From Alphaproteobacteria bacterium (GTDB lineage: Bacteria; Pseudomonadota; Alphaproteobacteria; MPNO01; UBA830): a stretch of DNA of 64,000 nucleotides. The DNA lies in the NCBI GenBank assembly GCA_964291215.2, contig OZ219790.1:64001-128000 (forward strand), written 5' to 3'. How positions within the stretch are numbered: position 1 is the first letter of the stretch; the number at the start of each line of letters is the position of its first letter. Shown piece by piece: positions 36,476-53,125 of the stretch. A model generated the notes under the pieces. That model made no database searches. It saw nothing but the letters and a program-made list of their open reading frames with translations, and had not been told where the DNA came from. A program made the translations under genes and the position numbers.

Positions 36476-36478
36476 CGC

Positions 36479-36988
36479 GTGGGGGGAGCGGATGACATTC
36501 TGCGAGTCGAGTTTCTCGGCGCGCAACACGACCGATCGGGGTTCGAAAGCGGTGTAGAGCCGCTTGATCGTTACTTTCAGACGCAAGCTGGACAGGACGC
36601 CAGAAAGAAGATGGCGGCGCCTTTTGTCCTCGTACTGAAGGATGGCAGCGTCGCCGGATATTATACGCTTTTGTCAACGACGGTGCGGCTTCCGGAGTTG
36701 CCGGAAGCCGTGGTCCGCAAGCTGCCGCGCTACCCGCTGATCCCGGCGACTTTACTGGGCCGCCTTGCTGTCGATCAGCGCTATCAGGGAAAAGGTTATG
36801 GTCGGTTCCTCCTTGCGGACGCACTCTTTCGGGCCGTGCGCAGCGAGATTGCATCCTTTGCGGTGATTGTGGACGCCAAGGGTGAGAGCGCGAAGCGCTT
36901 CTATGAGCGCGAGAGTTTTTTACCGTTCCCGGACCAGCAGATGAAGTTGTTCCGGCCAATGGCGGATATTGAAGCATTGTTCAAGTGA
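36479..36988 (+). CDS. GNAT acetyltransferase toxin (TacT/AtaT-like)
   Basis: HDRSGF.SG...LDRY, LLGRLAVD..YQGKGYG..LL.DA, VDAK...A..FY. Confidence 0.92.
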   Translation: MGGADDILRVEFLGAQHDRSGFESGVEPLDRYFQTQAGQDARKKMAAPFVLVLKDGSVAGYYTLLSTTVRLPELPEAVVRKLPRYPLIPATLLGRLAVDQRYQGKGYGRFLLADALFRAVRSEIASFAVIVDAKGESAKRFYERESFLPFPDQQMKLFRPMADIEALFK

Positions 36989-36999
36989 GGGGGGTGTTC

Positions 37000-37247
37000 G
37001 TGGCGGATGCGGATGGAGAAGAACCTGAGAAATTGACATTTTGACATTTAAATTTCTCCGGGGCCTCGAGGCTGATGCCGGTGAGCTTGGATGGCCAGCT
37101 GGCGCTGATTTCGTCAGGAAAGCGCTGTCGGAATCGCTCAACGCAAAGAACGTGGCGTTCCTGCTCGGGGCAGGTTGCTCGTCGAATTGCGTCAAAGAGA
37201 AAGATACTGCGGGCAAGGATGCCTGGCGAGAGCTTGGTATTCCGACC
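37000..37247 (+). pseudogene. SIR2-family protein N-terminal fragment
   Basis: NVAFLLGAGCSS...GIPT; frameshifted by an 8-bp duplication; truncated by a transposase remnant. Confidence 0.7.
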
Positions 37248-37249
37248 GA

Positions 37250-37684
37250 CGCAAAAAGTGCCAACTTGGGTGAAGGACGAGATCGTGACGCTCGACGCCG
37301 AGCACGAGGCGCTCAAGGTCCGGCGTTCAGAAACCCCGAAGCATGTCACGGTGGCCGAGCTCGACGAGAGACTCGACGCCCTGCCCTCCAGCGAGAAGCT
37401 GCTGCTCGACATCGTTCGCATGATCGCCTACCGCGCCGAGACCCGGATGATGTCCGCCGTCGCCGCGGCGCAGGGCGCAAAGCAGCGTCCGCGACGCCCC
37501 CTCGCCGAACTGTTCCAGTCGGACGCCGACATCGCCGGGCTGCTCGACGAACTCAACCGGACGCGCACGATCTTCCCCGGAACCGGGCTCCGCATGATCT
37601 ACGAACTGCCAGACAACGCACGCAAACCCGGCCCAGAAGCATCGCCCTGATTGGAAAAATTGAACCCGAGGTCAGGACATCTGA
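37250..37684 (+). pseudogene. C-terminal remnant of an unclassified transposase with its terminal repeat
   Basis: TPKHVTVAEL...LDIVRMIAYRAET...LNRTRTIFPGTGLRM.Y; ends GGTCAGGACATCTGA. Confidence 0.6.
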
Positions 37685-37740
37685 GCTTCCCATGGCAAGG
37701 GCCGTCTCTTCGCCCCGCATGATCAAGACATGGAAAGATC

Positions 37741-37760
37741 GGTATAGCATTTGCTATACC
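37741..37760. promoter_or_regulatory. Palindromic operator upstream of the XRE::helicase gene
   Basis: GGTATAGCA-TT-TGCTATACC, perfect 9-bp arms, ~60 bp before the start codon. Confidence 0.65.
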
Positions 37761-37819
37761 GCGCGAGATGATTTAATCTCGACGCCCAATGTGATCGAGA
37801 AACGGCGATGCAATCGGGA

Positions 37820-40800
37820 ATGGGCGACATTCCGGAAGACTACCCACTCCGGGTCAGGGACTTGCGTCAGCGGTTGGGGCTCACGCAGGCACAGATGGCG
37901 GAGCGCATCGGCGTGTCGTTCGCGACAGTGAACCGCTGGGAGAACAGCCAGTCCAGGCCCGGGCGCCTAGCGTGGCGCGGGATCGTCGATCTGGAAGCCG
38001 AGGTCCGGCACTCGAGCCGGCCGGCCGAACCGCCCGCCGCTTCGGCGGCGCCAACACTCGACTTTGGTGCTGAGCCGGCAGCGGTGGCCGCCGTTGCGGC
38101 GGCGACGCGGCTCGACTACGGCCACCTGTCCAACCCGACTTTCGCCAGCGAGATATCCTCGATCGACCCGTTGCCGCACCAGCGTATCGCCGTCTACGAA
38201 CACATGACCGGCCAGTCGCCGCTGCGGTTTCTCCTTGCCGACGATGCCGGTGCGGGAAAGACGATTATGACGGGGCTGTATATCCGCGAGATGCTCGTGC
38301 GCCGGCTGATGACCCGTGTGCTTGTTGCTGCGCCGGCCGGGCTGGTGGGCAACTGGGAACGCGAGATGCGCACGCTGTTCCGCCTCTCCTTCCGCATTGT
38401 GCGCGGCGCCGACGCCCGCGCCGGGAATCCGTTCGCCGGGCCGGAGAGCGACCGCATCGTCGTCAGCATCGACACGCTTGCCGGCGAGCGCATGTTCGGG
38501 CGCCTTCGCGAGGCGGTGGAATCGGGCGCCGCGCGACCCTACGACCTCGTGGTGTTTGATGAGGCTCACAAGCTGGCCGCCGCTCGCGAGCAGGATTTCC
38601 GAGTCCGCAAGACCGATCGCTACCGCCTCGCCGAAGCGCTGGCCGGCCTGCCCGTAGACTGTGCGCGCTGGAGCCTGGGCTGGTCGGCCTCGAATATCCT
38701 GCTGCTGACCGCGACGCCGCACATGGGCAAGGACTTCCCCTATTACTGCCTGTGGCGCCTGCTCGCGCCTGACGCGCTGTCGACTTTCGAGGCGTTCGAG
38801 GACTTCCCCGAGGCGTCGCGCCGCCGCCACTTCATCCGTCGCACCAAGGAAGAGATGGTTCACGCCGACGGTCGGCACCTCTATCCGCAACGTAAGTGCG
38901 ACACCCTCAGTTACGCGCTGAACCCGGCCGAGCAAGATCTCTATGACGCGACGACGCAATACATCAAGGAAACCTACAACAGGGCGCGCGTTCTGAACCG
39001 TTCCGCGGCCCGTCTTGCGATGAGCGTGTTCCAGCGCCGGCTCGCCAGTTCGACCTACGCCCTGATGCGCTCGTTCGAGCGCCGCCTCGACCGCCTGGAC
39101 AAGGCCATTGCGCTTGTCCGGGCGGGCCGCAGCGATGAGCTGAAGAGGGGCCAGACGCGGCTCGGGAAGACACCGGATTTCTTCGAATCCCGCACCGCCG
39201 ACGAGGAGGCGGACGACAGCGGCGAACGGGAGCGCCACGAGGAGTTCGAAGAGGCCGCGCTCGGCGGTTTCGCCTCGCTCACCCTTGTGGAGTTCCGGGA
39301 GGAGCGGGCAGAGGTCGAAGCCCTTCTGTCCCGGGCGCGCCGTCTCGCCGAAGCGGGCGAGGATTCCAAGTTCGAGAAGCTGCGTGCGGTCATGTGCGAT
39401 CCGGCCTTCGCCCGGGAAAAGCTCATCGTCTTCACCGAGCATCGAGACACGGCGGAGTTTCTGGTACGCCGCTTGGAAGAGCTCGGCTTCGCCGGTCGGG
39501 TCGGCCTGATCCATGGCGGGATGGATTACCACGCGCGCGAGGCGCAGGTAACGCTGTTCCGGCGTCCGGCGGAGCGCGGCGGCGCCAGCTATCTGGTCGC
39601 GACCGACGCCGCCGGCGAAGGCATCAATCTCCAGTTCTGTTGGCTTATGGTGAATTACGACGTGCCTTGGAACCCGGCGCGGCTGGAGCAAAGAATGGGG
39701 CGCATCCACCGCTACGGGCAAACGCACGACCCGGTGGTGATCGTCAACCTGGTCGCCGGGGAGACGCGCGAAGGCCGGGTTCTCAAGGTGCTGCTCGACA
39801 AGCTCGAGGCGATCCGCAAGGAACTCCGCTCGGACAAGGTGTTTGATGTCGTCGGGCACCTGTTCGAGAATCTGCCGCTCAAGGATTATCTGGAGCAGGC
39901 GGTGACGGAGGCCGGCGCCCGCACCGCTGTCGAGGCGTTCGATGCCAATCTGACGCCGGAACGAGCGGTCGCCATTGACGCGCGGGAGCGCGGCCTCTAC
40001 GGTAGCGGCGAGGTTCGCGCCCGCCTTTCCGAGCTCAACACGACCATGGAGCGGGAACAGTATCGCCGTCTGCTTCCTGGCCATGTCCGCCACTTCGTCG
40101 AGACCGCGGCCCCCTTGATCGACCTGCGACTGGAGGGCGACGCGGGCGGCGTATTCGACTTCGCGCCCCAACGCCCGCGCGCCGCCGACGATATGCGCGC
40201 CGCGATGGATGTCTACCCCGAAGCGATGCGAGGCCGGTTGACGTTCCAGCGTCCGGAAGCCGGCGACTACACTATCTGGATGCATCCCGGCGAGCCGGTG
40301 TTCGAGTGCTTTCACGCCGCCCTGCTGGCGCGCCGCGGCGGCGAGGCGCTGCGCGGCGCGATATTCGTCGATCCCCACGCCGAGGAACCCTACCTCTTTC
40401 ACCTGGCCCGGGTCTCGGTGGTGCGTCGCGGCCGAAACCGGACGGAGACGATCGAGATACGCCCGGTCGGGCTGCGGCAGGAGAGCGACGGCGCTGTTTC
40501 GCCGTGCCCGCCGGAGCATCTGCTTTTGTTGCGCGGCGTTGGCGGCGTCGCGCCCGGTAGCATACCGCTGGCCCGCGTGGCGCACAGGCTCACGGAAGAC
40601 GCCAGGGCGTCGCTGAAGGAGACTGCGCTGTGCATGGCGGCGAAACATCGCGCGCGCCTTGAGCAGGCGCTGCCGGAACTGCGCCGTTTGACCGCGCGCG
40701 GCTATGGCTACAAGACCGCCGAGTTGATGACGAGGCGTCGGAGCATGAGCGGGGAGGCCCGCCAGGGCAATTCGCAAGCGCAAGCGGAGCTCGCCATCGT

Positions 40801-41374
40801 GAAGGAAGAGCAGAGCCGCCTGGTCGCGGAGCAGCGCTGCCGTCTGGCGGCGCTGGAGGCGAAGCCTGCTTCGATTGGCCCCGGCGAGGCAGCGATGATT
40901 GCCCATGCACTGGTCCTGCCGACCAGCGACCCGGAAGAGCGGCAGCGGCACGACGCCGAAGTCGAGACGATCGCCATGGTCCGTGCGCGCGCCCATGAGG
41001 AAGCGGCGGGGGCCTCGGTTCAAGACGTGTCGCGGCCCGCGCTGGCGCGACGCGCGGGCCTGGGCGACTGGCCCGGCTTCGACCTTCGTTCGCTGCGCCC
41101 GGCGGGAGCGGGCGGGCCGGCGGAGGACCGCGCCATTGAGGTCAAGGGCCGCGCCGGTTCCGGCGCGGTGGAAGTGAGCGAAAACGAATGGGCGGCGGCC
41201 TGCAACCTGCGCGAGCGCTACTGGCTCTATGTCGTCTTCGACTGCGCCGGGTTGCGTCCCCGCCTGGTCAAGATCCGCGACCCCTTCGGTTGTCTGCTGG
41301 CCCGGACGAAAGGCGGAGTCGTCATTTCGGCGTCGGAAATCTTGTCGGCAAGCAGGGACGAGGGGGCGGCATGA
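37820..41374 (+). CDS. XRE-HTH::SNF2 helicase::DUF3883 (PD-(D/E)xK) fusion
   Basis: LGLTQAQMAERIGVSFATVNRWEN; LADDAGAGKT, DEAH, TATPH, EGINLQ, EQRMGRIHR; GFDLRS...IEVKGR...SENEW. Confidence 0.9.
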   Translation: MGDIPEDYPLRVRDLRQRLGLTQAQMAERIGVSFATVNRWENSQSRPGRLAWRGIVDLEAEVRHSSRPAEPPAASAAPTLDFGAEPAAVAAVAAATRLDYGHLSNPTFASEISSIDPLPHQRIAVYEHMTGQSPLRFLLADDAGAGKTIMTGLYIREMLVRRLMTRVLVAAPAGLVGNWEREMRTLFRLSFRIVRGADARAGNPFAGPESDRIVVSIDTLAGERMFGRLREAVESGAARPYDLVVFDEAHKLAAAREQDFRVRKTDRYRLAEALAGLPVDCARWSLGWSASNILLLTATPHMGKDFPYYCLWRLLAPDALSTFEAFEDFPEASRRRHFIRRTKEEMVHADGRHLYPQRKCDTLSYALNPAEQDLYDATTQYIKETYNRARVLNRSAARLAMSVFQRRLASSTYALMRSFERRLDRLDKAIALVRAGRSDELKRGQTRLGKTPDFFESRTADEEADDSGERERHEEFEEAALGGFASLTLVEFREERAEVEALLSRARRLAEAGEDSKFEKLRAVMCDPAFAREKLIVFTEHRDTAEFLVRRLEELGFAGRVGLIHGGMDYHAREAQVTLFRRPAERGGASYLVATDAAGEGINLQFCWLMVNYDVPWNPARLEQRMGRIHRYGQTHDPVVIVNLVAGETREGRVLKVLLDKLEAIRKELRSDKVFDVVGHLFENLPLKDYLEQAVTEAGARTAVEAFDANLTPERAVAIDARERGLYGSGEVRARLSELNTTMEREQYRRLLPGHVRHFVETAAPLIDLRLEGDAGGVFDFAPQRPRAADDMRAAMDVYPEAMRGRLTFQRPEAGDYTIWMHPGEPVFECFHAALLARRGGEALRGAIFVDPHAEEPYLFHLARVSVVRRGRNRTETIEIRPVGLRQESDGAVSPCPPEHLLLLRGVGGVAPGSIPLARVAHRLTEDARASLKETALCMAAKHRARLEQALPELRRLTARGYGYKTAELMTRRRSMSGEARQGNSQAQAELAIVKEEQSRLVAEQRCRLAALEAKPASIGPGEAAMIAHALVLPTSDPEERQRHDAEVETIAMVRARAHEEAAGASVQDVSRPALARRAGLGDWPGFDLRSLRPAGAGGPAEDRAIEVKGRAGSGAVEVSENEWAAACNLRERYWLYVVFDCAGLRPRLVKIRDPFGCLLARTKGGVVISASEILSASRDEGAA

Positions 41375-41795
41375 AGGTTTGCCATGTCGATGAGAGCGGT
41401 AATACTACACAGGGTCCCTCTCCAAGAGAGGCACTCGCTCGCCGCCCGGGCGCTGGCCGGCGAATGGGCCGTCTACGACAATGCGGGGCCGGCCCCGGTA
41501 TCGCTGGCGGAGGGAGGAAACGGATGACGCTGACGAAGCCCGCACATGACAAACCGGACGCCCCCGGCCGCGACCCGGACATGGCCGTCCGCCGCCGGGC
41601 CGTGGAGAATGGCGCCAAAGGCATCTCCGTATTCGAAGGGGTCAGGATCGTCCGGATGGTGGTGGACGAGGAAACCTTGGCCTTGAGCAGGTGCTGGCGG
41701 GCGCGGCGGATAAAGATGTGGTGGCGCCTCGTCGGACAAGTCGAAACACTGCTCGCGACGGTGCGTCGACCATTGGCGGAACCGGAGGCCGGTTG
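41371..41795 (+). pseudogene. Fused remnants: DUF3800-like N-terminus, zeta-toxin-like ATPase C-terminus and a small partner ORF
   Basis: MKVCHVDESGNT; W.VYDNAG..P..LAEG in another frame; MTLTKP...AVRRRA...VFEG.RIV. Confidence 0.4.
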
Positions 41796-41797
41796 AT

Positions 41798-42820
41798 ATG
41801 GCCGATGTGAACCTGAAAATTCCGGCGATCGACAGTTTGGTCAAACACGTCGCTAGCGGCATCGGCGCGGTGGCCGGGCCGATGCTGGAGCCATGGAAAG
41901 CACGTCAGGAAACGAAGGCGAAACTCATCAGGGCAGAGGCTGAAGCTGACAGACTGAAACTCTTCGCCAATGCCCAAGCCGAGGCGTGCCGCTTGCTGCT
42001 CCCACAGGACGAGGAAGCTCATGGTGTGCTGGACATCGGCGGCCCGAACGGGATTTCGCAGCGAATCGAGTTCCAGGAACGGAAGCGGCAGGCGAACATC
42101 GCCTCGGTAGTCCGGGACGCCGCCGCCGTGCTGGATGGCAAGGAGGTCGATGACCATGAACCCGATCCGGACTGGACGGCGCGGTTTTTCAATAGCGTTC
42201 AGGACGTAACGTCGGAGGATATGCGGAAAATCTGGGCCAGGATTCTTGCAGGAGAAGTCGAAGGACCAAGCCGGACATCGTTGCGAACGCTGGATGTTCT
42301 GAGAAACATGACGACTAAGGACGCCAAGATGTTCGAGCGGATATGCAGATATGTCGTTCGTGACCCCTCCAAAGACAAGTTCTTTTTCTCAGACGAAGAA
42401 CATGATTTCGGTCATCTTGCAATACCATTTGAAGATTTAATTTATCTTCAAGAAATTGGTCTTATTAATGCAAATAATCCACTTGAATGGAGTGTGTCCT
42501 TAAGCAAACAAAACAAAACCGTGCTTTTTTTTCATGAAAAATTTCTGATTATTTTGACAGGAAGCAAGTCAAAAGACAGTCAAACAATCAAAATTCCCAT
42601 TTACCGCCTTACGAATCCTGGAAAAGAACTCCATGCCATCGCAGGGTGCGAATTTCATTGGGATTACTTGCAGCCACTTGCACGATTCCTGCGCACACAA
42701 GACATCGAAGTGTCCTGCGCTCAGATTATCGAGAGCTTTCCCGACGGCAACTACGGATATTCCGCTCCCTTCGACCCTTTCAAGATCGAGTCCGCAAAGC
42801 CGCGCGGTACCGTCTCATGA
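41798..42820 (+). CDS. DUF2806-like protein
   Basis: QERKRQANIASVV..AA, PDPDWTARFF..VQDVTSEDMRKIWARILAGEV..P...SLRTL. Confidence 0.8.
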   Translation: MADVNLKIPAIDSLVKHVASGIGAVAGPMLEPWKARQETKAKLIRAEAEADRLKLFANAQAEACRLLLPQDEEAHGVLDIGGPNGISQRIEFQERKRQANIASVVRDAAAVLDGKEVDDHEPDPDWTARFFNSVQDVTSEDMRKIWARILAGEVEGPSRTSLRTLDVLRNMTTKDAKMFERICRYVVRDPSKDKFFFSDEEHDFGHLAIPFEDLIYLQEIGLINANNPLEWSVSLSKQNKTVLFFHEKFLIILTGSKSKDSQTIKIPIYRLTNPGKELHAIAGCEFHWDYLQPLARFLRTQDIEVSCAQIIESFPDGNYGYSAPFDPFKIESAKPRGTVS

Positions 42821-45800
42821 CCGCCGATCGCGACACCCGCCTGATCGAGGTGGATTTTCCGTTGGAGCGGGTTTCGCTCGATTCGGTGCATGAGAAGAAC
42901 GTCCGGCACGGACATATATCGACGCTGCATATTTGGCCGGCGCGACGGCCGCTGGCGGCGTGCCGGGCGGCACTGGTGGCGACGCTGCTGCCCGACCCCG
43001 GCGATGCGGCAGCGCGGCAGGCGCTCTACCGCCGGCTGGCCGGTGAGGTCGTCGAGACGGTCAGGGCGGAGCGCCGCGGCGGCCGCGCGGTGGAGCAACA
43101 CCGGCGCGAGACTGCAGGCGGCCTGCTGCACTGGGGACGCGAGGACGGCCCGGACCTGCAATGGTTCCGCGAGCGCATCCGCCAGGCCCATGGCGGGCGG
43201 GCGCCCAGGGTGCTGGACCCGTTCGCCGGCGGCGGCGCTATACCGCTGGAGGCGATGCGGCTCGGCTGCGAGGCGACCGCCGTCGATATCAACCCGGTGG
43301 CCTGGTTCATCCTCAAATGCACCCTCGACTATCCGCGCCGGATAGCGGGCAAGACCCTGCCGCTGCCCGGTTTCGCGCGCACCGACAGGGATTTCATGGC
43401 GGCCTTCCTCAAGGCGCGGGGCTTCAAGGGCAAGCCACTGGACGGCAGGCTTGCGGCGCTCGGCCTCGCGCCGGACTGCGGGGCGGGGGAACTGGCGCTG
43501 GATGCCCCGGCGCGCGAAGAGGCGCTCTGCGAAGCCGACCTCGCCTGGCATGTCCGCGCCTGGGGCCGGCGCGTGCTCACCGTAGTTCGCGCGGCGCTGG
43601 CGGCGCGCTACCCGACCTATGCTGCGTTCCAGGCGCCAGCACCTGGCGGCCCGTCGTTCGAGCCGCGGCCGCTCGCGCTGCTGGCGCCGGACGAAACGGG
43701 CGCGACCAGTGCCGGGCCGCTGAACGAGGCGTTCGACGCGGCCTGGCTCGCCGACCCGCGCAACCCGCGTTGGGTGGCGAAACCGACGGTGGCCTATCTG
43801 TGGGCGCGCACGGTGCGCTGCAAGAGCTGCCGCGCCGTACTACCGCTTCTCAAGACCCGGTGGCTGTGCAGGAAGGACAGCAAGCGCATCCTGCTCACCA
43901 TGACGCCGCGGGCGGACGGGTCCGGCGTCGCCTTCGGGGTCGAGGCCGGGGTGCCGCCGGCCACCGGCACTGCGGCGCAGCGGCGCGAGGGCGATAGGCG
44001 GCTCGGCGAAGGCACGATGAGCCGCAGCGGCGCACGCTGCCCCTGCTGCTCGGCGATCATGTCCATGGAGGACATCCGCCTCGAAGGCCGCGCCGGGCGG
44101 CTGGGCGCGGTGATGACCGCCGTGGTCGTCGACGGGCCGAAGGGCAAGGAATACCGCCCGCCGGAGGACGAGGAGCTCCGCGCTGCGGAGGTCTCCGCCG
44201 GCGAACTGGACGCGCTGTATGTCGACATTCCATTCGGGCTGCCGACGGAGGCGACGCCGCGCCAGGGACCGGGCGCTGCCCGCGCTTTCTCGGTGGAGAA
44301 TTACGGCCTCGACCGCTGGGACAAGCTGTTCACCGACCGGCAGCTTCTGGCGCTGGGCTCGGTGCTGCGGGAGATGCGCCGGTGCGCCGACGCAATGGCG
44401 GACCTCCCGCCGGAATGGCGGGAGGCGGTCCTGGCCTGTCTGGCCCCGTCGCTCGGCCGCCTCGCCGACCGGGGCAGTGCGCTTGCGACCTGGACCAATG
44501 ACCGTGAAACAACCCGCAGCACGTTCGCCCGTTTCGCACTGCCCGTCGTGTGGGACTTTGCCGAATCCTGCCCGCTGGCCGACACTACCGGCGGCTTCGT
44601 CCAGGCCGTCGAGTGGATCGCCCGCGTCGTCGAGCATCTGCAAGACGCGGCGAGGGACGCGCCCGGCGCAACGGTGCTGAGGCAGTCGGCGCTTGCACCC
44701 GTTCGCGGCGGGTTCGACGCCATCGTCACCGACCCGCCTTATTACGACGCCATTCCCTATTCGGACCTGATGGACTTCTTCCATGTCTGGCTGCGCCGCG
44801 CGCTGCACGGCGTCGTGGCGGACGCGGACCCGGCGTTCGCCGACCCTCTCGGCCCGAAATGGAATGCGGCCGGCGGCGACGGCGAGCTGATCGACGACGC
44901 CAGCCGGTTCGGCGGCGACCGGGCGGCATCGAAGCAGGCCTACGAAGACGGTATGGCCCGCGCCTTCCAGGCGTGCCACAAGGCGCTGAAGCCGGAGGGG
45001 CGGCTGGTCGTCGTCTTCGCCAACAAGTCTCCCGACGCCTGGGAGACCCTGGTCGCGGCGCTGATCCGCGCCGGGTTCGTCGTCACCGGTTCCTGGCCGA
45101 TCCAGACCGAGATGCAGAACCGGCAGCGTTCGCTGGCCTCCGCCGCCCTCGCCTCCTCGGTCTGGCTCGTCTGCCGCAAGCGCCCGCCGGGCCGGCCGGG
45201 CTGGGACAGCGCGGTGCTGGCCGAGATGCGCGAGAACATCACGCGGCGACTGCGCGGCTTCTGGGATGCCGGCATCCGCGGGCCGGACTTCGTGTGGGCC
45301 GCGACGGGGCCGGCGCTCGAAGCCTTCTCTCGGCATCCGGTGGTGAAGAAGGCCGATGCGCCCGGCGAGACCATGGCGGTCTCCGAATTCCTGCGAGAGG
45401 TGCGCCGCATGGTGGTCGATTTCGTCGTCGGCCGGGTGTTGACCCGCGACGCCGACGCGGCGGGCGGCCTCGACGATGTGACGACCTATTACCTGCTGCA
45501 TCGCGGCGATTTCGGCCTGGGCGAGGCTCCAGCCGGCGCCTGCATCCTCTATGCGCTGTCCTGCAACCTGTCCGACCGCGACCTCTCCGACCGCTTCGCC
45601 ATCCTGTCACGACCTGACCGCGTCCAATTCGACGAAGCAGATGACGACGGGACCGGCGACGAGGACGGCGGCGGTGCTGCGGGTGCCGGCGGCCGGGGCG
45701 GCAAGGCGAAGCTGCTGCCCTGGAACCGGCGCAAGGCCAGAGGGCTGGGCCTCGAAGGCCCGGGCGGTCGCCCCGCGCCGCTGATCGACCGGGCGCACAG

Positions 45801-46032
45801 GCTGATGCAGCTCTGGCGCGCGGGCGACGAGGCGAAGGTGAACGCCTATATCGACGACAGCGGCCTCGCACGCCAGACTCTGTTCGCGCGGCTGCTGCAG
45901 TCGCTGATCGAGCTGGCGCCAGCCGGCTCGGAGGAACGCGCGATCCTCGAATCCCTCTCCAACCACATCGCCGCCCGCACCGGCCTCGCCGCACCGCGCC
46001 AGGGCGCCTTGTGGCTGGAGGAAGCGCCATGA
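42817..46032 (+). CDS. DUF1156 adenine-specific DNA methyltransferase with Zn ribbon
   Basis: LIEVDFP..HISTLHIWPARRPLAACRA; DPFAGGG; CKSC...CPCC; TDPPY. Confidence 0.92.
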   Translation: MTADRDTRLIEVDFPLERVSLDSVHEKNVRHGHISTLHIWPARRPLAACRAALVATLLPDPGDAAARQALYRRLAGEVVETVRAERRGGRAVEQHRRETAGGLLHWGREDGPDLQWFRERIRQAHGGRAPRVLDPFAGGGAIPLEAMRLGCEATAVDINPVAWFILKCTLDYPRRIAGKTLPLPGFARTDRDFMAAFLKARGFKGKPLDGRLAALGLAPDCGAGELALDAPAREEALCEADLAWHVRAWGRRVLTVVRAALAARYPTYAAFQAPAPGGPSFEPRPLALLAPDETGATSAGPLNEAFDAAWLADPRNPRWVAKPTVAYLWARTVRCKSCRAVLPLLKTRWLCRKDSKRILLTMTPRADGSGVAFGVEAGVPPATGTAAQRREGDRRLGEGTMSRSGARCPCCSAIMSMEDIRLEGRAGRLGAVMTAVVVDGPKGKEYRPPEDEELRAAEVSAGELDALYVDIPFGLPTEATPRQGPGAARAFSVENYGLDRWDKLFTDRQLLALGSVLREMRRCADAMADLPPEWREAVLACLAPSLGRLADRGSALATWTNDRETTRSTFARFALPVVWDFAESCPLADTTGGFVQAVEWIARVVEHLQDAARDAPGATVLRQSALAPVRGGFDAIVTDPPYYDAIPYSDLMDFFHVWLRRALHGVVADADPAFADPLGPKWNAAGGDGELIDDASRFGGDRAASKQAYEDGMARAFQACHKALKPEGRLVVVFANKSPDAWETLVAALIRAGFVVTGSWPIQTEMQNRQRSLASAALASSVWLVCRKRPPGRPGWDSAVLAEMRENITRRLRGFWDAGIRGPDFVWAATGPALEAFSRHPVVKKADAPGETMAVSEFLREVRRMVVDFVVGRVLTRDADAAGGLDDVTTYYLLHRGDFGLGEAPAGACILYALSCNLSDRDLSDRFAILSRPDRVQFDEADDDGTGDEDGGGAAGAGGRGGKAKLLPWNRRKARGLGLEGPGGRPAPLIDRAHRLMQLWRAGDEAKVNAYIDDSGLARQTLFARLLQSLIELAPAGSEERAILESLSNHIAARTGLAAPRQGALWLEEAP

Positions 46033-47300
46033 TCACCGAGATCCGGCTCAAGGACTTCAAGAACTTCGCCGACGAGACGCTGCGCGTCGGCCCGTTCACC
46101 GTGATCGTCGGCGCCAACGCCAGCGGCAAGAGCAACATCCGCGACGCCTTCCGCTTCCTGCACGGCATCGGGCGTGGTTATACCCTCGCGGAGACCATCG
46201 GCGGAAAATACGGCGGCGGCGGCCAGGTCGAATGGGATCCGATTCGCGGCGGCGCCAACGAACTCGTCCGCTCGGGACGACAAACCCTGACCGTCGGCCT
46301 CACCGTGAAGCTGGCGGATGGGTCGCGCGCCTCTTACTGCATCGGGATGAAGCTCGACAAAGAAGGCCGCTTTCGGGTTGAGCGCGAAGTCCTCAAGGTC
46401 AGACATCGGGAAGTATATACCAGCCATCCGGCATCGCCCGATCCCGTTCGGGAACAGAACGACGATGCCCATCTGCTGCTTCGGATGGAAAAAACCGGCA
46501 CCCAACGTAAGTATGGCCACCGAATTCCCGTGCGATGGGATCAACCCGCGCTGACCCAGATTCAAGGCGTCAAGCATGTGGTGCGTTGGCACAAAGATTG
46601 GGCCGGGGAAGTGGCGGGCCTGCTCGGCCACTGCCGTTTTCTCGACCCGACGCCGGACCTCATGCGCAAGCCCGCCTTCCCCGGCCAGGTGACGCTGGGA
46701 GACAGCGGCGAGAATCTCCCCACGGTGCTGCAGAAAATCTGTGCCGACGAAGCGAAGAAGGAGGCCCTTTTCGACTGGACCCGCGAACTCACGCCGATGG
46801 ACGTGGCAAACTTCGAGTTTCCGCGCGACCCGACGACCGGGCTGGTGCAACTCGCGATCCGCGAGAGAAGCGGAAGAAGGATTTCCGCCTACAGCGCATC
46901 GGACGGCACACTGCGTTTCCTCGCCATGCTGGCGGCGCTGCTCGATGAGGAGCCGGCGGGCCTCTATTTCTTCGAGGAGATCGACAACGGCATCCACCCG
47001 TCGCGGCTTCACCTGCTGGTCGACTTGATCGAACGCCAGACGCAGGGCGGCGCGGTGCAGGTCATCACCACGACCCATTCGCCCGAACTGCTTTCCATGG
47101 TAAGCGACGGCACTTTCCGGGATATGTCCGTCGTCTGCCGTTCGGAGGATACGGAGGACGCCGTTATCCGCCCGGTCGCCGACCTGCTCGGCGCCAAGGC
47201 GCTGCGAGAAACCCAAGGATTGGGCCGTCTGCTCGCCGGGGGCTGGATGGAGACGGCCCTTGCCTTCACCGAAGGCGGTGGCGAGGGAGACCGGGAATGA
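46029..47300 (+). CDS. ABC-type (AAA_21-like) ATPase
   Basis: GANASGKS, ASDGT, FFEEIDNG.HP, TTHS; ATGA overlaps on both sides. Confidence 0.9.
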   Translation: MITEIRLKDFKNFADETLRVGPFTVIVGANASGKSNIRDAFRFLHGIGRGYTLAETIGGKYGGGGQVEWDPIRGGANELVRSGRQTLTVGLTVKLADGSRASYCIGMKLDKEGRFRVEREVLKVRHREVYTSHPASPDPVREQNDDAHLLLRMEKTGTQRKYGHRIPVRWDQPALTQIQGVKHVVRWHKDWAGEVAGLLGHCRFLDPTPDLMRKPAFPGQVTLGDSGENLPTVLQKICADEAKKEALFDWTRELTPMDVANFEFPRDPTTGLVQLAIRERSGRRISAYSASDGTLRFLAMLAALLDEEPAGLYFFEEIDNGIHPSRLHLLVDLIERQTQGGAVQVITTTHSPELLSMVSDGTFRDMSVVCRSEDTEDAVIRPVADLLGAKALRETQGLGRLLAGGWMETALAFTEGGGEGDRE

Positions 47301-47860
47301 ACATCCTTGTCATTCCCGAGGATTTTCGCAATGATCAATATATCCTGAAGCCCCTGTTCAAGCGGCTGTTCGCCGCCTTGGGCCGAGGGCGCGCGCGGAT
47401 CCGGGTTTGCCAGGACCCGCGGCTCGGTGGCGTCGGCGAGGCACTGAAAACCGAACGTATCCGCGAGATCGTGGACCAGCATCGCGGTATGACGGATATC
47501 TTCGTCCTTTGCGTCGACCGCGATGGCGAGACGGGGCGGCGTGCGCGGTTGACCGAGATCGAAGAAAATCTCGAAGATGATTGCCGCCTGTTCGCCGAGA
47601 ACGCCTGGGAGGAAATCGAGACCTGGGCGCTTGCCGGCCTGGACCTGCCCGACGAATGGAGCTGGGTGCAGGTTCGCACCGAAATCCAGGTCAAGGAGCG
47701 ATATTTCAAGCCGCTCGCCGAGCGACGCGGCGTTGCCGACGGCCCCGGCGGCGGCCGCAAGGCGCTTGGCGAGGAGGCCGCGCGTAAAATCGATACGATC
47801 CGGCGCAAATGCCCCGAGGATTTCGACGCGCTCGCCCGGCGCCTCGGCGACGCCGCCTGA
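47297..47860 (+). CDS. Putative TOPRIM-like (DUF4276/RloB-like) partner of the ATPase
   Basis: ILVIPED, CVDRD (DxD), EEIETW.LA. Confidence 0.65.
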   Translation: MNILVIPEDFRNDQYILKPLFKRLFAALGRGRARIRVCQDPRLGGVGEALKTERIREIVDQHRGMTDIFVLCVDRDGETGRRARLTEIEENLEDDCRLFAENAWEEIETWALAGLDLPDEWSWVQVRTEIQVKERYFKPLAERRGVADGPGGGRKALGEEAARKIDTIRRKCPEDFDALARRLGDAA

Positions 47861-47880
47861 ACCCATCGAGCGAGGACGAC

Positions 47881-50800
47881 ATGACGAGAAAACTTTCCTG
47901 GACGCCCTGGCATGAGGTCGTGACGCTGCGCGAGGATGTGCGCACGGGCGCGCTCTCGCTGGCCGACTTTGCCGCCGATCTTCACGATGTAGCGATGCAG
48001 AAGGGCGCGCGGCCGGTCTATGAGGATCCGGGCCGATTCTTTGCGCTGACCTATCCGACCTTCCCGTTGCGGGAACTTGCGCGCGATGTGGCGCTGCGCC
48101 TCGCCGGCAGGAACACTAGGGCAATCCGCCAGCTCGAACTCACCTATGGCGGGGGCAAGACCCATACGCTGGTGACGCTCTACCACCTGGCGCACGATCC
48201 GCAGTCGCTGCCGGCGCTCCCCGCGGTCGAGCAGTTCCGCTCCCATGTCGGCGCGCCCCTGCCGGCGGCGCGCGTAGCGGCGCTCTGCTTCGACAAGCTC
48301 GATGTGGAAAAGGGAATGGAGGTACGCGCCCCCGGCGGCGCGCTGCGCTGGCTCAAGTATCCCTGGAGCGTACTGGCGTTTCAGCTGGCGGGCGAGGAGG
48401 GCCTGCGCGCGCTTCATCCCGACAGCGCGAACGAGGAACGGGAGACGGCGCCTGCCGAGCCGCTGCTCGCCGAGTTGCTGTCGCGGCCGCAGGCAAGTGG
48501 GCTCGCCACCCTGGTGCTGATCGACGAAGTGCTGATGTACGCCCGTGAGAAGGCGGCGATGGAGGAAGGCTGGCGCACGCGGCTGACCGACTTCTTCCAG
48601 TATCTGTGCCAGGCGGCGGTCAGGGTGGACCGCTGCGCCCTCGTCGCCTCGCTGCTCGCCTCCGACCCCGCGAAGAGCGACGCGCTCGGCAAGCAGCTTA
48701 CCCGGCAGATTTTCGACATTTTCAACCGACAGCGCGAAGAGGGGATCCAGCCGGTGCAGAAGGAGGATGTGGCCGAAGTGCTGCGCCGGCGCTTCTTCGA
48801 ATCCGGTTCGATCGCCGATCCCGACTCCTTTCGCCCCCATGTCACGGCGACGGTCGCCAATATCGCCAGGGTCGACGAAACGGTGGACAAAAACAGGGCG
48901 GGCGAGGAACAGCGTTTCCTCGACAGCTACCCCTTCCATCCGGGGCTGACCGATATTTTCTATGCCAAGTGGACTCAGCTGGATGGGTTCCAGCGTACGC
49001 GCGGCATCCTGAGGACCTTCGCCATCGCACTGCGCGATGCCGAGAAGTGGGACAGGGCGCCGCTGGTCGGCCCCAATATCCTTTTGCCCGCGCCCGGCGA
49101 AAACGCTCTCTCCGAGGCGGCGCGCGAGCTTGCCGGCACCGCCACGCGCGAGATCACGGAGGGCGCCGGCAATGTCTGGAGCGCCGTGCTGGAGGGCGAG
49201 TTTGCGAAGGCGCGGGCCGTGCAGGACGACCATCCGGCGCTGAAGTTTCGCGAAATGGAGCAGGCGGTGTGCGCCGTGTTCCTGAGTTCGCAGCCGATCG
49301 GCCAGAAGGCGCACACGCCGGAGTTGATGGCGCTTGTCGGTGCGGCAGGCCCTGACCGGATTGATGTGGAGAAGGCCCTGCGCCGCTGGACCGAACTCTC
49401 CTGGTTCCTCGACGAGGTGGAGTTCGCCGACGCCGCGACTCTGCCCCGGGCGTGGCGTCTCGGCAACAGGCCCAACCTCAAACAGATGCATGACGACGCC
49501 TGCGCCAACCGGGTCGCGGCGGAGCAGGTGGAACAGGCGCTGCTGGAGGAAGTGCGGCGGGCAAAGAGCCTCACCCAGGGTGCGGCGGCGGCAGGCGCAA
49601 GGGTGCACATGCTGCCGGAGCGGCCGCGCGACATCGGCGATGACGGGGAGTTCCATTTCGCCGTCCTGGGGCCGGGCGCGGTTTCCGATTCGGGCCGACC
49701 GAGCGCACAAGCGCGGCGCTTCATCGACGAGACGACGGGGCCGGACCGGCCGAGGATCCGACGCAACGCCGTGGTTCTGGCGGCTCCCTCGCGCGACGGC
49801 CTCGACGCCGCCCGGGCAAGCATTCGCGAATATCTCGGCTGGGAGGAGGTGCGCCGACAACTTGACGGCCAGGGAGGCGATTCGGTGCGCGAAGGGATGC
49901 TAGCCGACTCGACGGAGCGGGCGCGCAAGCGCATTCCCGACGCGATCCGCCAAGCCTGGGCCATCGTCGTCGCCGTCAACGAGCACAACGACATCCAGGC
50001 GTTCAAGACAACCATCGGCGCGGAAGCGCTGTTTGCGGTCGTCAAGGCGGACCGGCGGGCGCGCATCCAGGAGACCGCGATCAGCGCCGAAGCGATGCTG
50101 CCTAACGGCCCCTACGATCTCTGGCGCGCCAACGAGGCCTCGCGCCGCGTGAAGGATATTGCCGGCGCCTTCGCGGAGAACCCGAAACTGCCGAAAATGC
50201 TCCGCCGTAAAGACATCCTCGACACGATCGACCGGGGTGTGCGCGACGGCGTCTTCGTCGCGTCGCTGGTCAGGCCCGACGGATCGGTCAGAACCTGGTG
50301 GCGGACGCCGGTCGACGAGCAGGCCCGGTCGGAGCCGGCGCTGGAGCTGTTCCTGCCCGACAAGGCCACGTTGTCGGAGCTCGACCCGCAGGCGCTGGCG
50401 CCGGATGTGCTTCCGGAGTTGTGGACCGGCGATTCGGTCACGGTGGCGGATCTCGTCGCCTACTTTTCCGGCGGGCGAATAGCGACCGTGCAGCGAGAGG
50501 GGTATGCGGAAACAGTTGGTATTCCGGCCTGTCCCCGCGCTGCGGTCGACGCGGCGGTCTCGGAGGCCGTCGGCCAGGGCGTCCTGTGGCTCGTGAACGG
50601 CCCCGCAAGTCTCCAGGGCGAACCAGTGCCGCCCGGCATCCTGTCTGAAACCGCCCAACTGCGCGCGCCGCTATCGCCGCTTTCGGTAAACCGATTGACG
50701 AAGGACTCGGCGCCGGAGGCATGGAAAGACGGGCAGACCAGCGCCCTGGCCCTCTTGACTGTGCTCTCTGTGCAGGCCGGCGTGCCTCTGCCCTGGGCGG

Positions 50801-51198
50801 TCCTGCGCCGGGCGATCAACGACGCGCTCGACGGACAGTGGCTCGCCCTGGCGCCCGAAAGCGCCCCGTGGCCGTGCCCGGCCGCGGGTGCGGAGACCGT
50901 CATGCTGCGGGAACCCGAATCTTCGGGTGTCGCGGAGGGCGGCGGCGAAACCGCATTGCTCCGCAAGGGCCTGCATACCGGGGCGGCCGACCTTGCGCCC
51001 AACGAGTTGCAGGACCTGGTTGACGCGCTGCCGGAAGTCATCACTGCCGCTGCTGGCATCCCCTTGCGGTTCCACCTTCGCATGACGCTGGGGGACGGCA
51101 GCGAACCGCACGCCGAAACGGCGGCGTCCATCAACATTATCCTGGAAAGCGCCAACCCCGGCTTGCGCTTGAGCGGGGCCGAAAAGCCGGACGGATGA
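47881..51198 (+). CDS. DUF499 AAA+ ATPase (BrxC-related)
   Basis: PWHEVVTLREDV..G...FAADL; TYGGGKTH; VLIDE; SYPFHP; FQRTRGILR. Confidence 0.9.
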   Translation: MTRKLSWTPWHEVVTLREDVRTGALSLADFAADLHDVAMQKGARPVYEDPGRFFALTYPTFPLRELARDVALRLAGRNTRAIRQLELTYGGGKTHTLVTLYHLAHDPQSLPALPAVEQFRSHVGAPLPAARVAALCFDKLDVEKGMEVRAPGGALRWLKYPWSVLAFQLAGEEGLRALHPDSANEERETAPAEPLLAELLSRPQASGLATLVLIDEVLMYAREKAAMEEGWRTRLTDFFQYLCQAAVRVDRCALVASLLASDPAKSDALGKQLTRQIFDIFNRQREEGIQPVQKEDVAEVLRRRFFESGSIADPDSFRPHVTATVANIARVDETVDKNRAGEEQRFLDSYPFHPGLTDIFYAKWTQLDGFQRTRGILRTFAIALRDAEKWDRAPLVGPNILLPAPGENALSEAARELAGTATREITEGAGNVWSAVLEGEFAKARAVQDDHPALKFREMEQAVCAVFLSSQPIGQKAHTPELMALVGAAGPDRIDVEKALRRWTELSWFLDEVEFADAATLPRAWRLGNRPNLKQMHDDACANRVAAEQVEQALLEEVRRAKSLTQGAAAAGARVHMLPERPRDIGDDGEFHFAVLGPGAVSDSGRPSAQARRFIDETTGPDRPRIRRNAVVLAAPSRDGLDAARASIREYLGWEEVRRQLDGQGGDSVREGMLADSTERARKRIPDAIRQAWAIVVAVNEHNDIQAFKTTIGAEALFAVVKADRRARIQETAISAEAMLPNGPYDLWRANEASRRVKDIAGAFAENPKLPKMLRRKDILDTIDRGVRDGVFVASLVRPDGSVRTWWRTPVDEQARSEPALELFLPDKATLSELDPQALAPDVLPELWTGDSVTVADLVAYFSGGRIATVQREGYAETVGIPACPRAAVDAAVSEAVGQGVLWLVNGPASLQGEPVPPGILSETAQLRAPLSPLSVNRLTKDSAPEAWKDGQTSALALLTVLSVQAGVPLPWAVLRRAINDALDGQWLALAPESAPWPCPAAGAETVMLREPESSGVAEGGGETALLRKGLHTGAADLAPNELQDLVDALPEVITAAAGIPLRFHLRMTLGDGSEPHAETAASINIILESANPGLRLSGAEKPDG

Positions 51199-51472: not shown

Positions 51473-52531
51473 TCAGGTGATCGGATCGACGGGCCAGCCG
51501 TAACTTTCGGAAAATTGTCTCCCGAATGCTGCTTCCACCAGGTATTTGGCAACGCGTGGACTTGCGGTCCTTTCATGCGCGATGCGCCAGCCTCGCTCAC
51601 CAAGCTGCCGGCGAGCATGGTCGTTGCGCCACAGATAGATCATTAACTCGACCAGATGTTCACGGCTTTCAAATTCCATCACGCCGTCATCATAGATCCC
51701 GGCCAACCCCGCACTCGTTGCGGTCAGCACGGAGACGCCTTGGCCCAACGACTGGGCAATCCTGTCGGAGGAATATAGAAGCGGAACGGGTTTGGTGTCG
51801 TCATGCGCGAGATTCGGCATACATGCCGCCTGCGCTAGGGCATCAAGGAATTCGATCGAACGGAGACGGCGCGGGCCGTGTGCGTTTGAGCGGAATCGGT
51901 AGCCGCCAGGCAACAAAGTAAGAAGCGCCACAATCTGGTCGTCGCGCGTCTTATTGGGGGTGCCGAGAAACTGGCCGTCATACGGAAGCACGTCTCGAGC
52001 CTTCTCGAATACACGTGCGACCTCGATGCTGGAGTCGACAGGGTTCGGGAAAAAATGGACAGGGCCACATCGGCGCTCGGGCAGAGAGAGACTACCAAGA
52101 CCGGCAGTCGTAATGAAGGAAATGTCGACCTCGCGCATCCGTGCGCAAAAGCGCTTCATCGAATGCGCGTTAAAGACAGCATCCACGTTGAACTGCGCGA
52201 GCACGGCCTCCGGAACTCCTTTACGAATGGCGCGCATTGTCGTCGCGTCCACCCGGTCAACATGGCCGAACAGTACGAGATCGGGTCGATAATGACTGGC
52301 TGTCTGGATCAGGCGCCGGCGCATTTTCGCGATGCCGCCGAATCTGGAGCTCAGCACCAGTGGTGAGGCCTCCCGGGAAACGTCGCGGTCCGAAAACGCA
52401 ATGACGTGATGCCCGGCTCGCAGGAGGCCCGTGTGGAGCTTGCTGTCTACATTGTAAAACGTGGCATGGAGTCGGCGACGATCGAGATTGGCGACCAGGA
52501 GAATGCGCAGCGGCTTGAGGCGGGAAGACAT
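51473..52531 (-). CDS. CgeB-like (GT1-related) glycosyltransferase
   Basis: GHHVIAFSDRD, PDLVLFGH, PNPVD.SIE, YSSDRIAQ.LGQG. Confidence 0.7.
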   Translation of the reverse strand: MSSRLKPLRILLVANLDRRRLHATFYNVDSKLHTGLLRAGHHVIAFSDRDVSREASPLVLSSRFGGIAKMRRRLIQTASHYRPDLVLFGHVDRVDATTMRAIRKGVPEAVLAQFNVDAVFNAHSMKRFCARMREVDISFITTAGLGSLSLPERRCGPVHFFPNPVDSSIEVARVFEKARDVLPYDGQFLGTPNKTRDDQIVALLTLLPGGYRFRSNAHGPRRLRSIEFLDALAQAACMPNLAHDDTKPVPLLYSSDRIAQSLGQGVSVLTATSAGLAGIYDDGVMEFESREHLVELMIYLWRNDHARRQLGERGWRIAHERTASPRVAKYLVEAAFGRQFSESYGWPVDPIT

Positions 52532-53010: not shown

Positions 53011-53084
53011 TGATCAAGCCCTTGAGCGGCGTCAGGCCCCGTCGCTGCTCGAGGCGTCCGTGGGCCTTGGTCGAGCTTCTCCTT

Positions 53085-53120: not shown

Positions 53121-53125
53121 CGTTA

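Follow-up and report, generated by a model that had tools for sequence, protein, structure and literature searches.

An intact Hma defence operon with two guest cassettes and a candidate operator upstream of its XRE-type hmaA gene

Introduction

Hma systems, named for their helicase, methylase and ATPase, were defined by Payne et al. (2021/2024), and a 2026 survey (PMC12839542) renames them Type-1 DUF499-centred systems related to bacteriophage exclusion (BREX), or Type-1 BREX-related (BR) systems. According to that survey, their hallmark is the triad of an ATPase, a methyltransferase and a helicase-restriction endonuclease with no further core genes, and the DUF3780 gene is confined to Type-2 BR systems (Gao_RL/MANTIS). 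The present analysis concerns a stretch of 64,000 nucleotides from an Alphaproteobacteria bacterium (contig OZ219790.1, positions 64,001 to 128,000; hereafter the window), in which six long open frames occupy 37.8-51.2 kb on the + strand, all of them intact by the listing of open reading frames and by full-length matches to families or homologs. Judged by its sequence, this locus is an intact Hma system, alias a Type-1 DUF499-centred BR system. Two guest cassettes lie between its core genes. The core probably restricts unmethylated incoming DNA, and the guests are predicted to provide independent back-ups by abortive infection.

Among its relatives, only MANTIS (bioRxiv 10.64898/2026.09.23.753747) has a mechanism that is worked out: its methyltransferase is loaded by the DUF499 ATPase together with a small co-factor and hemimethylates asymmetric 6-bp sites, and its helicase-nuclease cleaves DNA with unmodified sites, best when these lie in inverted pairs. 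As regards Hma itself, HmaA from Halomonas alone protected E. coli from T4, for which it needed both its helicase and its PD-(D/E)xK nickase domain (Liu 2024).

Guests in Hma operons are well documented, with insertions in 62.7% of 1,485 systems in one count (Payne et al. 2024) and in 66.5% of systems in another (Liu 2024). The commonest are ABC ATPases with TOPRIM, NERD or PIN partners, which have been proposed to answer anti-defence proteins of phages (Payne 2024). In Halomonas, hmaB and hmaC are separated in every hma locus by an AAA_21 ATPase and a small gene without annotation (Liu 2024), and BREX and BR systems from at least 1242 taxa are reported to have OLD-type ABC ATPases with nucleases (PMC12839542). 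The idea that such embedding provides a back-up has likewise been proposed already, in the discussion of Payne 2024 and in PMC12839542.

Core genes of the locus

The three core genes are named by their PADLOC matches. Specifically, hmaA (37808..41374, + strand, 1188 residues) matches the HmaA model at 1.7e-153 over residues 81-1144 and combines an XRE helix-turn-helix (HTH) head at about residues 15-61 (Pfam HTH_3, 6.7e-10), an Ala/Pro-rich linker, an SNF2/Helicase_C motor (SNF2-rel_dom; Helicase_C, 4.3e-21) and a C-terminal NOV_C/DUF3883 nuclease of the PD-(D/E)xK type at residues 1087-1154 (NOV_C, 2.6e-13). The product of hmaB (42817..46032, + strand, 1071 residues from the ATG at 42817) is a DUF1156 N6-adenine methyltransferase (HmaB, 9.6e-112; DUF1156, 1.2e-17) with DPPY and FAGGG motifs in its translation, and that of hmaC (47881..51198, + strand, 1105 residues from the ATG at 47881) is an ORC/Cdc6-type AAA+ ATPase of the DUF499 family (HmaC, 3.5e-73 over residues 7-789; DUF499, 2.3e-16). 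Walker, DEAH, DPPY and E-x-K motifs are legible in the core-gene translations. The hmaC reading frame is open from 47809 and offers candidate starts at 47809 and 47881, of which the second is the most likely because, counted from there, the match to the HmaC profile sets in at residue 7.

A preliminary description of this DNA, made from its letters and open frames, had named the parts correctly: a DUF499 protein, a DUF1156 methyltransferase, an SNF2 helicase-nuclease with an XRE HTH, a DUF2806 protein, and an ABC ATPase paired with a TOPRIM-like protein. Full-length matches to families or homologs also uphold its count of six long intact frames, and its suggestion of selection on the locus agrees with the ratio of non-synonymous to synonymous substitution rates (dN/dS). 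In pairwise comparisons with two related loci this ratio is 0.21-0.33 for hmaA, hmaB, the ABC ATPase gene, the gene of its 187-residue partner and hmaC, and 0.20-0.27 for the DUF2806 gene, for which dS is near saturation; such low values indicate that the genes are kept by selection.

That description had also regarded the lack of DUF3780 as the feature of a variant. None of the seven frames scanned matches DUF3780 in Pfam, PADLOC or NCBIfam, and the sole unassigned DNA is a 423-bp gap; since DUF3780 belongs to Type-2 systems only, however, its absence is the expected state of a Type-1 BR system and part of what defines Hma. The NCBIfam models of the DUF3780-type system reach 159 against a cut-off of 1000 and 84.7 against a cut-off of 1200, scores so far below threshold that they fit the Type-1 and not the DUF3780-type reading.

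The locus thus shares with the described Hma/Type-1 BR systems (Payne; PMC12839542; Halomonas meridiana, PMC11232893) the three core genes and their domains, the lack of DUF3780, the PD-(D/E)xK nuclease at the helicase C-terminus and the presence of guests between core genes, and differs in a DUF2806 guest and in belonging to a sub-clade of HmaA with an XRE-HTH head and an upstream dyad, which goes beyond the main-text discussion of these systems. MANTIS (formerly Gao_RL, Type-2 BR) also has a DUF499 AAA+ ATPase, a DUF1156-type methyltransferase and a helicase-nuclease, but it adds the small MtsB and uses a PLD/HKD nuclease; here neither is present, the nuclease is of the PD-(D/E)xK type (NOV_C), and the phospholipD_antiphage model, with a score of 148.6 for a cut-off of 1100, aligns to the helicase core alone. 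As for BREX types 1-6, PglZ was not found among the seven frames with Pfam, PADLOC or NCBIfam, and PglX/BrxH-type PADLOC matches are weak and confined to the methyltransferase and the helicase.

Two points weigh against this reading of the core and its function. The NCBIfam 'antiphage' models for DUF499 and DUF1156 match far under their cut-offs. Moreover, in the experiments of Liu 2024, phage from HmaB-overexpressing cells kept unchanged infectivity and an effect of HmaB methylation was not seen, so that no Hma system has been shown to mark its own DNA by methylation.

The gene junctions of Hma loci are insertion hot spots, as already published. In loci related to the present one, they hold HEPN, AbiJ_NTD4, GmrSD_N with HEPN, DUF3800 and nSTAND NTPases, and further MNT/HEPN, an RNA ligase, a reverse transcriptase and second or third pairs of AAA_21 and DUF4276 proteins. 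In four loci (L045, L051, L060 and L077), a single operon contains two or three AAA_21 ATPase cassettes that differ from one another, most with DUF4276-type partners, as well as HEPN/MNT and DUF433/DUF5615 pairs.

The XRE head of HmaA and the palindrome upstream

The preliminary description had counted the XRE head as something added to a known helicase. Searches with residues 1-140 of HmaA returned 1622 homologs at E <= 1e-3 among proteins of similar length, and the best 120 of these 1622 all combine HTH_3 with SNF2 and, except for a few shortened ones, with NOV_C. Table S6 of Liu 2024, too, gives HTH_3 or HTH_31 for many HmaA homologs. The XRE fusion on HmaA is therefore common, the norm in a large clade and already on record. 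Within the phylum, HmaA-like matches occur at 26 places in 21 of 401 genomes, and four of the 26, the one in the window included, align from residue 10 or earlier; the XRE type therefore represents a sub-clade. The main text of PMC12839542 does not use the word 'XRE', and that of Liu 2024 uses neither 'XRE' nor 'HTH'; literature searches on HmaA with helix-turn-helix gave, among the matches listed, no title or abstract on an operator of the kind described below.

What is new in this analysis is a conserved dyad upstream of XRE-type hmaA. In the window, it takes the form of a perfect 10+10 inverted repeat without strand (37740..37761; CGGTATAGCA-TT-TGCTATACCG) that lies 46 nt before the hmaA ATG. 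The preliminary description had let the locus begin at 37741, within this palindrome; the gene itself begins at 37808. The repeat is the sole match in the 64-kb window to the pattern ATAnCA-NN-TGn'TAT, where n and n' are complementary and at most one mismatch is tolerated. Related loci carry the same palindrome or a symmetric variant of it, in which the inner pair is G/C, A/T or T/A and the dyad is kept.

Two counts address how regularly the dyad accompanies the gene. In the first, it stood 31-74 nt before the start in 8 of 12 XRE-type hmaA loci and in none of 12 non-XRE hmaA upstream regions, with 11 sites in 1.69 Mb of loci. The second count used the unchanged pattern on 80 new metagenome loci, which were collected with an alignment of the N-terminal 200 residues (a scan with a single N-terminal sequence had found no relative) and of which two were dropped for having less than 120 nt upstream. 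The dyad was present in 41 of the 78 independent loci, 25-105 nt before the start of the tblastn match, and in 0 of 78 coding stretches of equal length; 200 shuffles gave a mean of 0.2 and a maximum of 2.

As the inner base pair varies while the symmetry of the dyad holds, the dyad is likely an operator for a dimeric XRE head of HmaA, by which hmaA would be autoregulated. The wider model, in which the head binds the upstream dyad and the nuclease thereby represses or times its own synthesis, a C-protein-like circuit within one polypeptide that would extend over a large Hma sub-clade, is advanced tentatively, at somewhat less than even chances. C-proteins time nuclease expression in restriction-modification systems, and separate repressors are known for BREX. 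MANTIS has a separate repressor as well (MANTIS preprint, bioRxiv 10.64898/2026.09.23.753747).

Several observations weigh against the operator: the pattern was first defined on a few of the very sequences described in the first count, it is absent from 37 of the 78 test loci, and the dyad could instead be a promoter element or the site of another factor. The corresponding alternative, that the palindrome is a promoter or another regulator's site and that the XRE domain serves target-DNA binding or sensing during restriction, is the best placed of those considered here and still rather unlikely. It draws on the loci that lack the pattern, on a -35-like hexamer, TTGCTA, in the right arm, and on the finding that many HTH modules of BREX-type proteins are DNA-recognition parts (PMC12839542). 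Yet it sits poorly with a dyad symmetry that is preserved through symmetric changes of the inner bases (G/C, T/A, A/T), with a site found upstream of XRE-type hmaA only and in none of 12 non-XRE regions, and with a distance to the start that is fixed and short.

The embedded ATPase pair

Between hmaB and hmaC lies the second guest, an OLD-type ABC ATPase of 423 residues (46029..47300, + strand) followed by a protein of 187 residues (47297..47860, + strand), a DUF4276-like protein with a predicted TOPRIM fold and a predicted metal-dependent nuclease effector, whose ATG overlaps the ATPase stop. The ATPase matches Pfam AAA_21 (9.7e-34), SMC_N and AAA_15 and, in PADLOC, PDC-M07A over its full length (3.2e-64), HEC-01A (3.6e-41), AriA (9.7e-35), mad3 (4.3e-24) and also AbiLi. 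In an alignment of 76 ATPases, column identity is 0.86-0.96 in the N-terminal head and 0.67-0.86 in the C-terminal half, and falls to 0.31-0.47 at residues 81-200. This variable middle fits what a trigger sensor would look like beside a constant effector; in PARIS, the corresponding ATPase insert has been proposed to recognise the trigger (PARIS paper, figure legend).

The 187-residue protein belongs to a large family, with 2600 homologs at E <= 1e-3 and 576 clusters at 50% identity; throughout the best 120 homologs, identity is 68-100% and length about 187 residues. An alignment of 86 sequences shows E108 to be invariant and E8, D13, D74, R75, D76 and E106 to be conserved in at least 90%; the conservation of E8 together with D74-x-D76 corresponds to the Glu plus DxD signature of TOPRIM. 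Among the same 86 relatives, 40 match DUF4276 weakly (best 2e-7) and eight match RloB, families that both sit in the Toprim superfamily with its E plus DxD, and DUF4276 is also the family of Mad4 in MADS (PMC12065111). The AlphaFold (AF2) model, with a predicted local distance difference test score (pLDDT) of 97.7 and a predicted template modelling score (pTM) of 0.92, shows a four-stranded parallel sheet whose strands (residues 2-7, 34-37, 68-74 and 98-103) are each followed by a helix, with E8 right after strand 1 and the DxD at the end of strand 3. The best Foldseek match is the TOPRIM region of the Burkholderia OLD protein BpOLD (6nk8, E 7.3e-3, probability 0.97), and the longest VIA alignments are those to PH0156 (Z 8.7 over 164 residues), the 6nk8 OLD TOPRIM (Z 8.3 over 156 residues) and AriB (Z 6.6 over 153 residues); GajA and Thermus OLD reach Z 6.2 each.

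Some results count against this assignment. The protein of the window has no match in Pfam and none in NCBIfam, and in PADLOC just HEC-01B at E 0.0067; its fold matches are middling, since Foldseek gave no match at E <= 1e-3; and the top VIA match is an Argonaute MID domain (Z 9.5 over 115 residues), ahead of the 6nk8 OLD TOPRIM. A profile of the family against the sequences of the Protein Data Bank gave only chance-level matches (E >= 0.12). On balance, the model and the motifs make the reading as a TOPRIM-type protein of the DUF4276/RloB branch well supported, and the TOPRIM-like partner that the preliminary description expected at 47297-47860 is found in the structure prediction as fold and motifs alike. 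Prediction of a complex between the ATPase and the 187-residue protein gave 0.34, 0.01 and 0.02 in three runs against a mark of 0.32.

[quoted passage not shown] The likeness of the second component is poor in each case. For HEC-01, the A component of the window is clear and the B component weak, and PDC-M07B is matched neither by the window's protein nor by any of the 86 relatives. PARIS, which senses the anti-restriction protein Ocr and cleaves tRNA (PARIS paper), differs in its effector: AriB is a DUF4435 protein of about 35 kDa, the partner here is DUF4276-like, no PADLOC match to AriB was obtained from the window's protein or the 86 relatives, and DUF4435 is not among 25 of the 29 Pfam families that these relatives match at E <= 1, which leaves it at most one member. 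The label of a PARIS-type pair in the preliminary description is therefore not retained. On the ATPase, the matches to AriA, mad3 and AbiLi lag well behind those to PDC-M07A and HEC-01A; OLD and GajA have a fused TOPRIM, in contrast to the unfused pair here; and the NCBIfam model antiphage_MADS3 reaches 91.1 bits against a cut-off of 420. Across the 86 relatives, the PADLOC models of B components find little, HEC-01B doing best with 17 (best 1e-6), followed by mad4 with two and AbiLii with one. The family is thus an unmodelled branch that is almost invisible to these models.

Autonomy of the pair

A survey of 80 genome loci that encode the 187-residue protein at 62-87% identity, in metagenome-assembled genomes labelled Alpha-/Gammaproteobacteria, Binatia, Latescibacterota, Chloroflexota, Acidobacteriota, Nitrospirota, Gemmatimonadota, Actinomycetota and Rhodothermota, bears on whether the pair is part of Hma. 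The ATPase gene lies directly upstream in all 80 loci, and the 4-nt overlap between its stop and the start of the small gene is kept in 78. Hma genes flank the pair in 34 loci, whereas 46 have no Hma gene within 10 kb by tblastn; the genes next to these lone pairs, judged from 90 frames in the 46 loci, serve mostly housekeeping or metabolism (MnmE, CTP synthase, EngA, acetyl-CoA carboxylase, SdhA, ProRS, transporters), and a few are defence-like. A quick-search tree of the small protein with 81 rows requires 15 changes between the embedded and the lone state, at least four of which are forced by well-supported branches; Hma loci have thus repeatedly captured the pair or lost it. The two genes form an autonomous cassette with translational coupling that occurs inside Hma loci or alone among housekeeping genes. 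The small protein retains its 62-87% identity across genomes of at least nine phyla, and its ATPase partner falls to 49-65% in most of them.

The evidence is not all on one side. The closest catalogued candidate of an ATPase with a TOPRIM protein, HEC-01, gave no protection against any phage tested in Payne 2024, and the tight coupling of the pair in the window, by a 4-nt overlap with hmaB and a gap of 21 nt to hmaC, also fits a working part of Hma. Indeed, the two proteins might load, regulate or execute restriction, much as Mad3 and Mad4 in MADS. The placement between hmaB and hmaC that recurs in 34 of the 80 loci and in all Halomonas hma loci (Liu 2024), the mad3 match of the ATPase with a DUF4276-like partner as in Mad4, and the clustering of embedded copies on the tree, where shuffled labels need about 26 changes and none of 500 shuffles is as low as 15, would all suit such a role. 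Nevertheless, a role within Hma appears improbable in view of the 46 lone pairs and the repeated changes of state; of uninterrupted three-gene Hma loci, among them one in the same genome (L114, C1 at about 832-840 kb, hmaA-hmaB-hmaC); and of loci with two or three such pairs.

Less probable again is that the pair serves no defence and is a mobile cassette of a selfish, addiction-type or similar nature, which would persist by harming cells that lose it rather than by halting phages. The negative HEC-01 assays, the scatter of the pair among housekeeping genes in many phyla and the toxin-antitoxin genes that adjoin it in some loci are in line with this idea, but it does not account well for the recurrence of the pair inside defence operons, for its kinship with components of AbiL, PARIS, OLD and MADS, for a variable ATPase insert that fits a sensor under arms-race pressure, or for the lack of a mobility gene travelling with it in most loci.

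The DUF2806 guest

The first guest is a gene of the DUF2806 family (41798..42820, + strand, 340 residues) whose stop overlaps the hmaB ATG. Its product matches Pfam DUF2806 at 6.3e-41 over profile positions 4-220 of 221 and TIGR03899 with 114 bits, under the cut-off of that model, and matches no PADLOC model. With a GC content of 51.3% against 64-72% in its neighbours (67.8% in hmaA and 71.7% in hmaB on either side) and a third-position GC (GC3) of 0.57 against 0.77-0.87 in the other five of the six genes, the gene is foreign to its neighbours in base composition. An insertion-free relative, L002, aligns with the window by blastn up to 41534 and resumes at 42831, and about 1.3 kb with the DUF2806 gene were therefore inserted into a short hmaA-hmaB spacer. 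By the same comparison, the 423-bp non-coding gap between hmaA and the guest (41375..41797, no strand), which was compared by blastn with L002 and L001, consists of the ancestral spacer (41375-41534) and the upstream part of the insertion (41535-41797).

The preliminary description had read ATGA overlaps at 41371, 42817, 46029 and 47297. The letters are present at all four positions, but only three are true stop/start overlaps of genes, namely DUF2806/hmaB, hmaB/ATPase and ATPase/187-residue gene. The frame opened at 41371 ends at 41796 (141 residues, GC3 0.70), is not the frame in which the DUF2806 gene starts at 41798, and found no match in Pfam, PADLOC or NCBIfam at any threshold tried. Its interpretation as a frameshifted N-terminal extension of the DUF2806 protein was rejected, the Pfam domain being fully inside the 340-residue frame, and its likeness to L001 and L065 reflects conserved intergenic DNA and not coding sequence.

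A DUF2806 gene occupies the hmaA-hmaB junction in 5 of 21 related loci that show both genes. In three of these five, a 174-residue frame resembling a Zeta-toxin/AAA_33 kinase precedes it (L033:3740-4261, L047:3734-4255, L068:2463-2984), which hints at a two-gene form of the guest; the window has 263 bp of non-coding DNA at that place. Within the length range searched, the family as a whole numbers 1453 homologs at E <= 1e-3, and among the best 120 listed at least one also carries Abi_alpha. Belisama, a DUF2806 protein from the chromosomal integron of Vibrio cholerae, is reported to be homologous to Abi-alpha, to protect against phage with lysis of the culture at high multiplicity of infection, and to be toxic when over-expressed (bioRxiv 10.1101/2024.07.02.601686). 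Belisama likewise consists of a single DUF2806 protein; it is a single-gene integron system, whereas the gene here is a guest in an Hma operon and abuts hmaB. By this analogy, the DUF2806 protein is likely a single-gene abortive-infection effector. Its structural model (pLDDT 74.7) gave no Foldseek match at E <= 1e-3 and no VIA match at Z >= 5, and weak winged-helix-like matches at about residues 160-285 are not interpretable and offer no mechanistic lead.

The locus within the described family

Taken together, the locus belongs to a described and well-populated system, in which it is unexceptional, and its guests too are of kinds already described. PADLOC names its core HmaA, HmaB and HmaC, and the architecture essentially matches a described subtype, an outcome that the preliminary description had itself held to speak against its proposal; the nested pair of an ATPase and a TOPRIM protein, which it had put forward as a novelty, is already the commonest Hma guest (Payne 2024) and is on record for the Halomonas loci (Liu 2024). 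That proposal, a new BREX-related variant that lost DUF3780, gained an XRE HTH and nests a PARIS-type guard, can point to parts that are all present in Pfam and PADLOC and to an XRE head that goes without mention in the main texts of PMC12839542 and Liu 2024, but it is scarcely tenable and largely refuted by the literature and the homolog counts, given Type-1 systems without DUF3780 by definition (PMC12839542), the XRE fusion on all of the best 120 of 1622 homologs and in Table S6 of Liu 2024, embedded modules of the same kind in papers of 2024-2026, and a partner outside DUF4435, the family of AriB.

Genomic surroundings and distribution

The genome measures 6.15 Mb in two contigs and holds a single copy of the 187-residue gene. 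In addition to the locus described here, it contains three more Hma-like loci at 29-40% identity and an isolated HmaA-like piece; besides L114, these places are L115 (C1 at about 1.40 Mb), L117 (C1 at about 1.89 Mb) and L116 (C2 at about 3.155 Mb), one of the latter three with guests that include an ABC-ATPase-like frame and one with hmaC split into two frames. Relatives of HmaC occur in 8 of 31 related genomes, the source genome counted, and close ones (at least 68% identity) in two of the 31 only, with broken pieces in a third; this occurrence speaks for a patchy, horizontally moved distribution. In comparison with L002, dS is just 0.30-0.45 for all five genes of Hma and the pair, which suggests that the whole operon was transferred fairly recently.

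The preliminary description had called the surroundings decayed, and this is true of the upstream side. There, domains D1-D4 of a group II intron RNA (30570-30747; Rfam RF02005, 74 bits) are accompanied by its protein in pieces, with an RVT_1 fragment at 31519-31980 and, in a different frame, a maturase domain at 32189-32722; 6457-7032 and 24506-25162 are HTH fragments of the IS630 type, and a C-terminal Transposase_29 fragment (37045-37647) ends 160 nt ahead of hmaA. It does not hold for a TacA-like antitoxin (PF08681, 4e-24) immediately followed by a GNAT acetyltransferase of the TacT toxin type, which stand intact amid this debris (36158-36985), nor for the downstream side, where the genes look whole. 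The latter comprise, on the - strand at 51476-56876, a Glyco_trans_1_2 glycosyltransferase-like gene, an unassigned frame of 369 residues and an ABC exporter (ABC_membrane and ABC_tran), and from 57232 conserved cell-wall genes (SLT_2, RlpA-like, PBP5-type) and tmk, so that housekeeping genes begin at about 57.2 kb.

The first 27 kb of the window hold more defence-type genes, namely an AAA_13 ABC ATPase (8890-11397, - strand), a protein with HTH_17 and ResIII/Helicase_C (11849-13876, - strand) and an HsdM-type N6 methylase (19191-20942, + strand); none of the frames scanned was recognised as HsdR or HsdS. A scan for promoters and terminators gave four promoter-like sites against 1.2 expected and nine terminator-like sites against 10.4, which defines no operon borders, and the 64-kb window contains no tRNA gene to mark an integration site.

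Model and outlook

A MANTIS-like mechanism is, by analogy, the likeliest model for the Hma core of this locus. Following MANTIS and the Halomonas HmaA, HmaC would load HmaB, HmaB would mark host DNA by adenine methylation, and HmaA would translocate on unmarked DNA and nick or cut it. The N-terminal XRE domain of HmaA may in addition bind the conserved palindrome and autoregulate hmaA, in the way that C-proteins time the expression of nucleases. As in PARIS, OLD and HEC-type modules, the variable insert of the ABC ATPase may sense a phage cue, possibly an anti-restriction protein, upon which the ATPase would release the TOPRIM nuclease, whose cleavage of nucleic acid would arrest the infected cell; a role of the pair as a back-up guard against anti-restriction proteins is, on these analogies, a reasonable one. 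The DUF2806 protein, if it behaves as reported for Belisama, would kill or lyse infected cells.

As an example of Hma with embedded modules, the locus adds little, for the architecture and the idea of layered defence are both in print. Three things deserve to be carried forward: the DUF4276-like family, which lacks a model of its own, the DUF2806 guest with its recurrence, and most of all the operator predicted for XRE-type HmaA. The family of the 187-residue protein is large, conserved across phyla, invisible to Pfam and nearly so to PADLOC, and a hidden Markov model built from its alignment would allow such pairs to be called. The recurrence of DUF2806 at the hmaA-hmaB junction, furthermore, backs a defence role of this family beyond the single test in Vibrio.

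To our knowledge, regulation is little understood in the BREX-related family. The dyad upstream of XRE-type hmaA provides a testable model for how a BREX-related nuclease could be held in check. If the autoregulatory circuit proves true, it may help to explain the spread of the operon over at least nine phyla with parts at 62-87% identity, and the level of the effector would report its own engagement with DNA.

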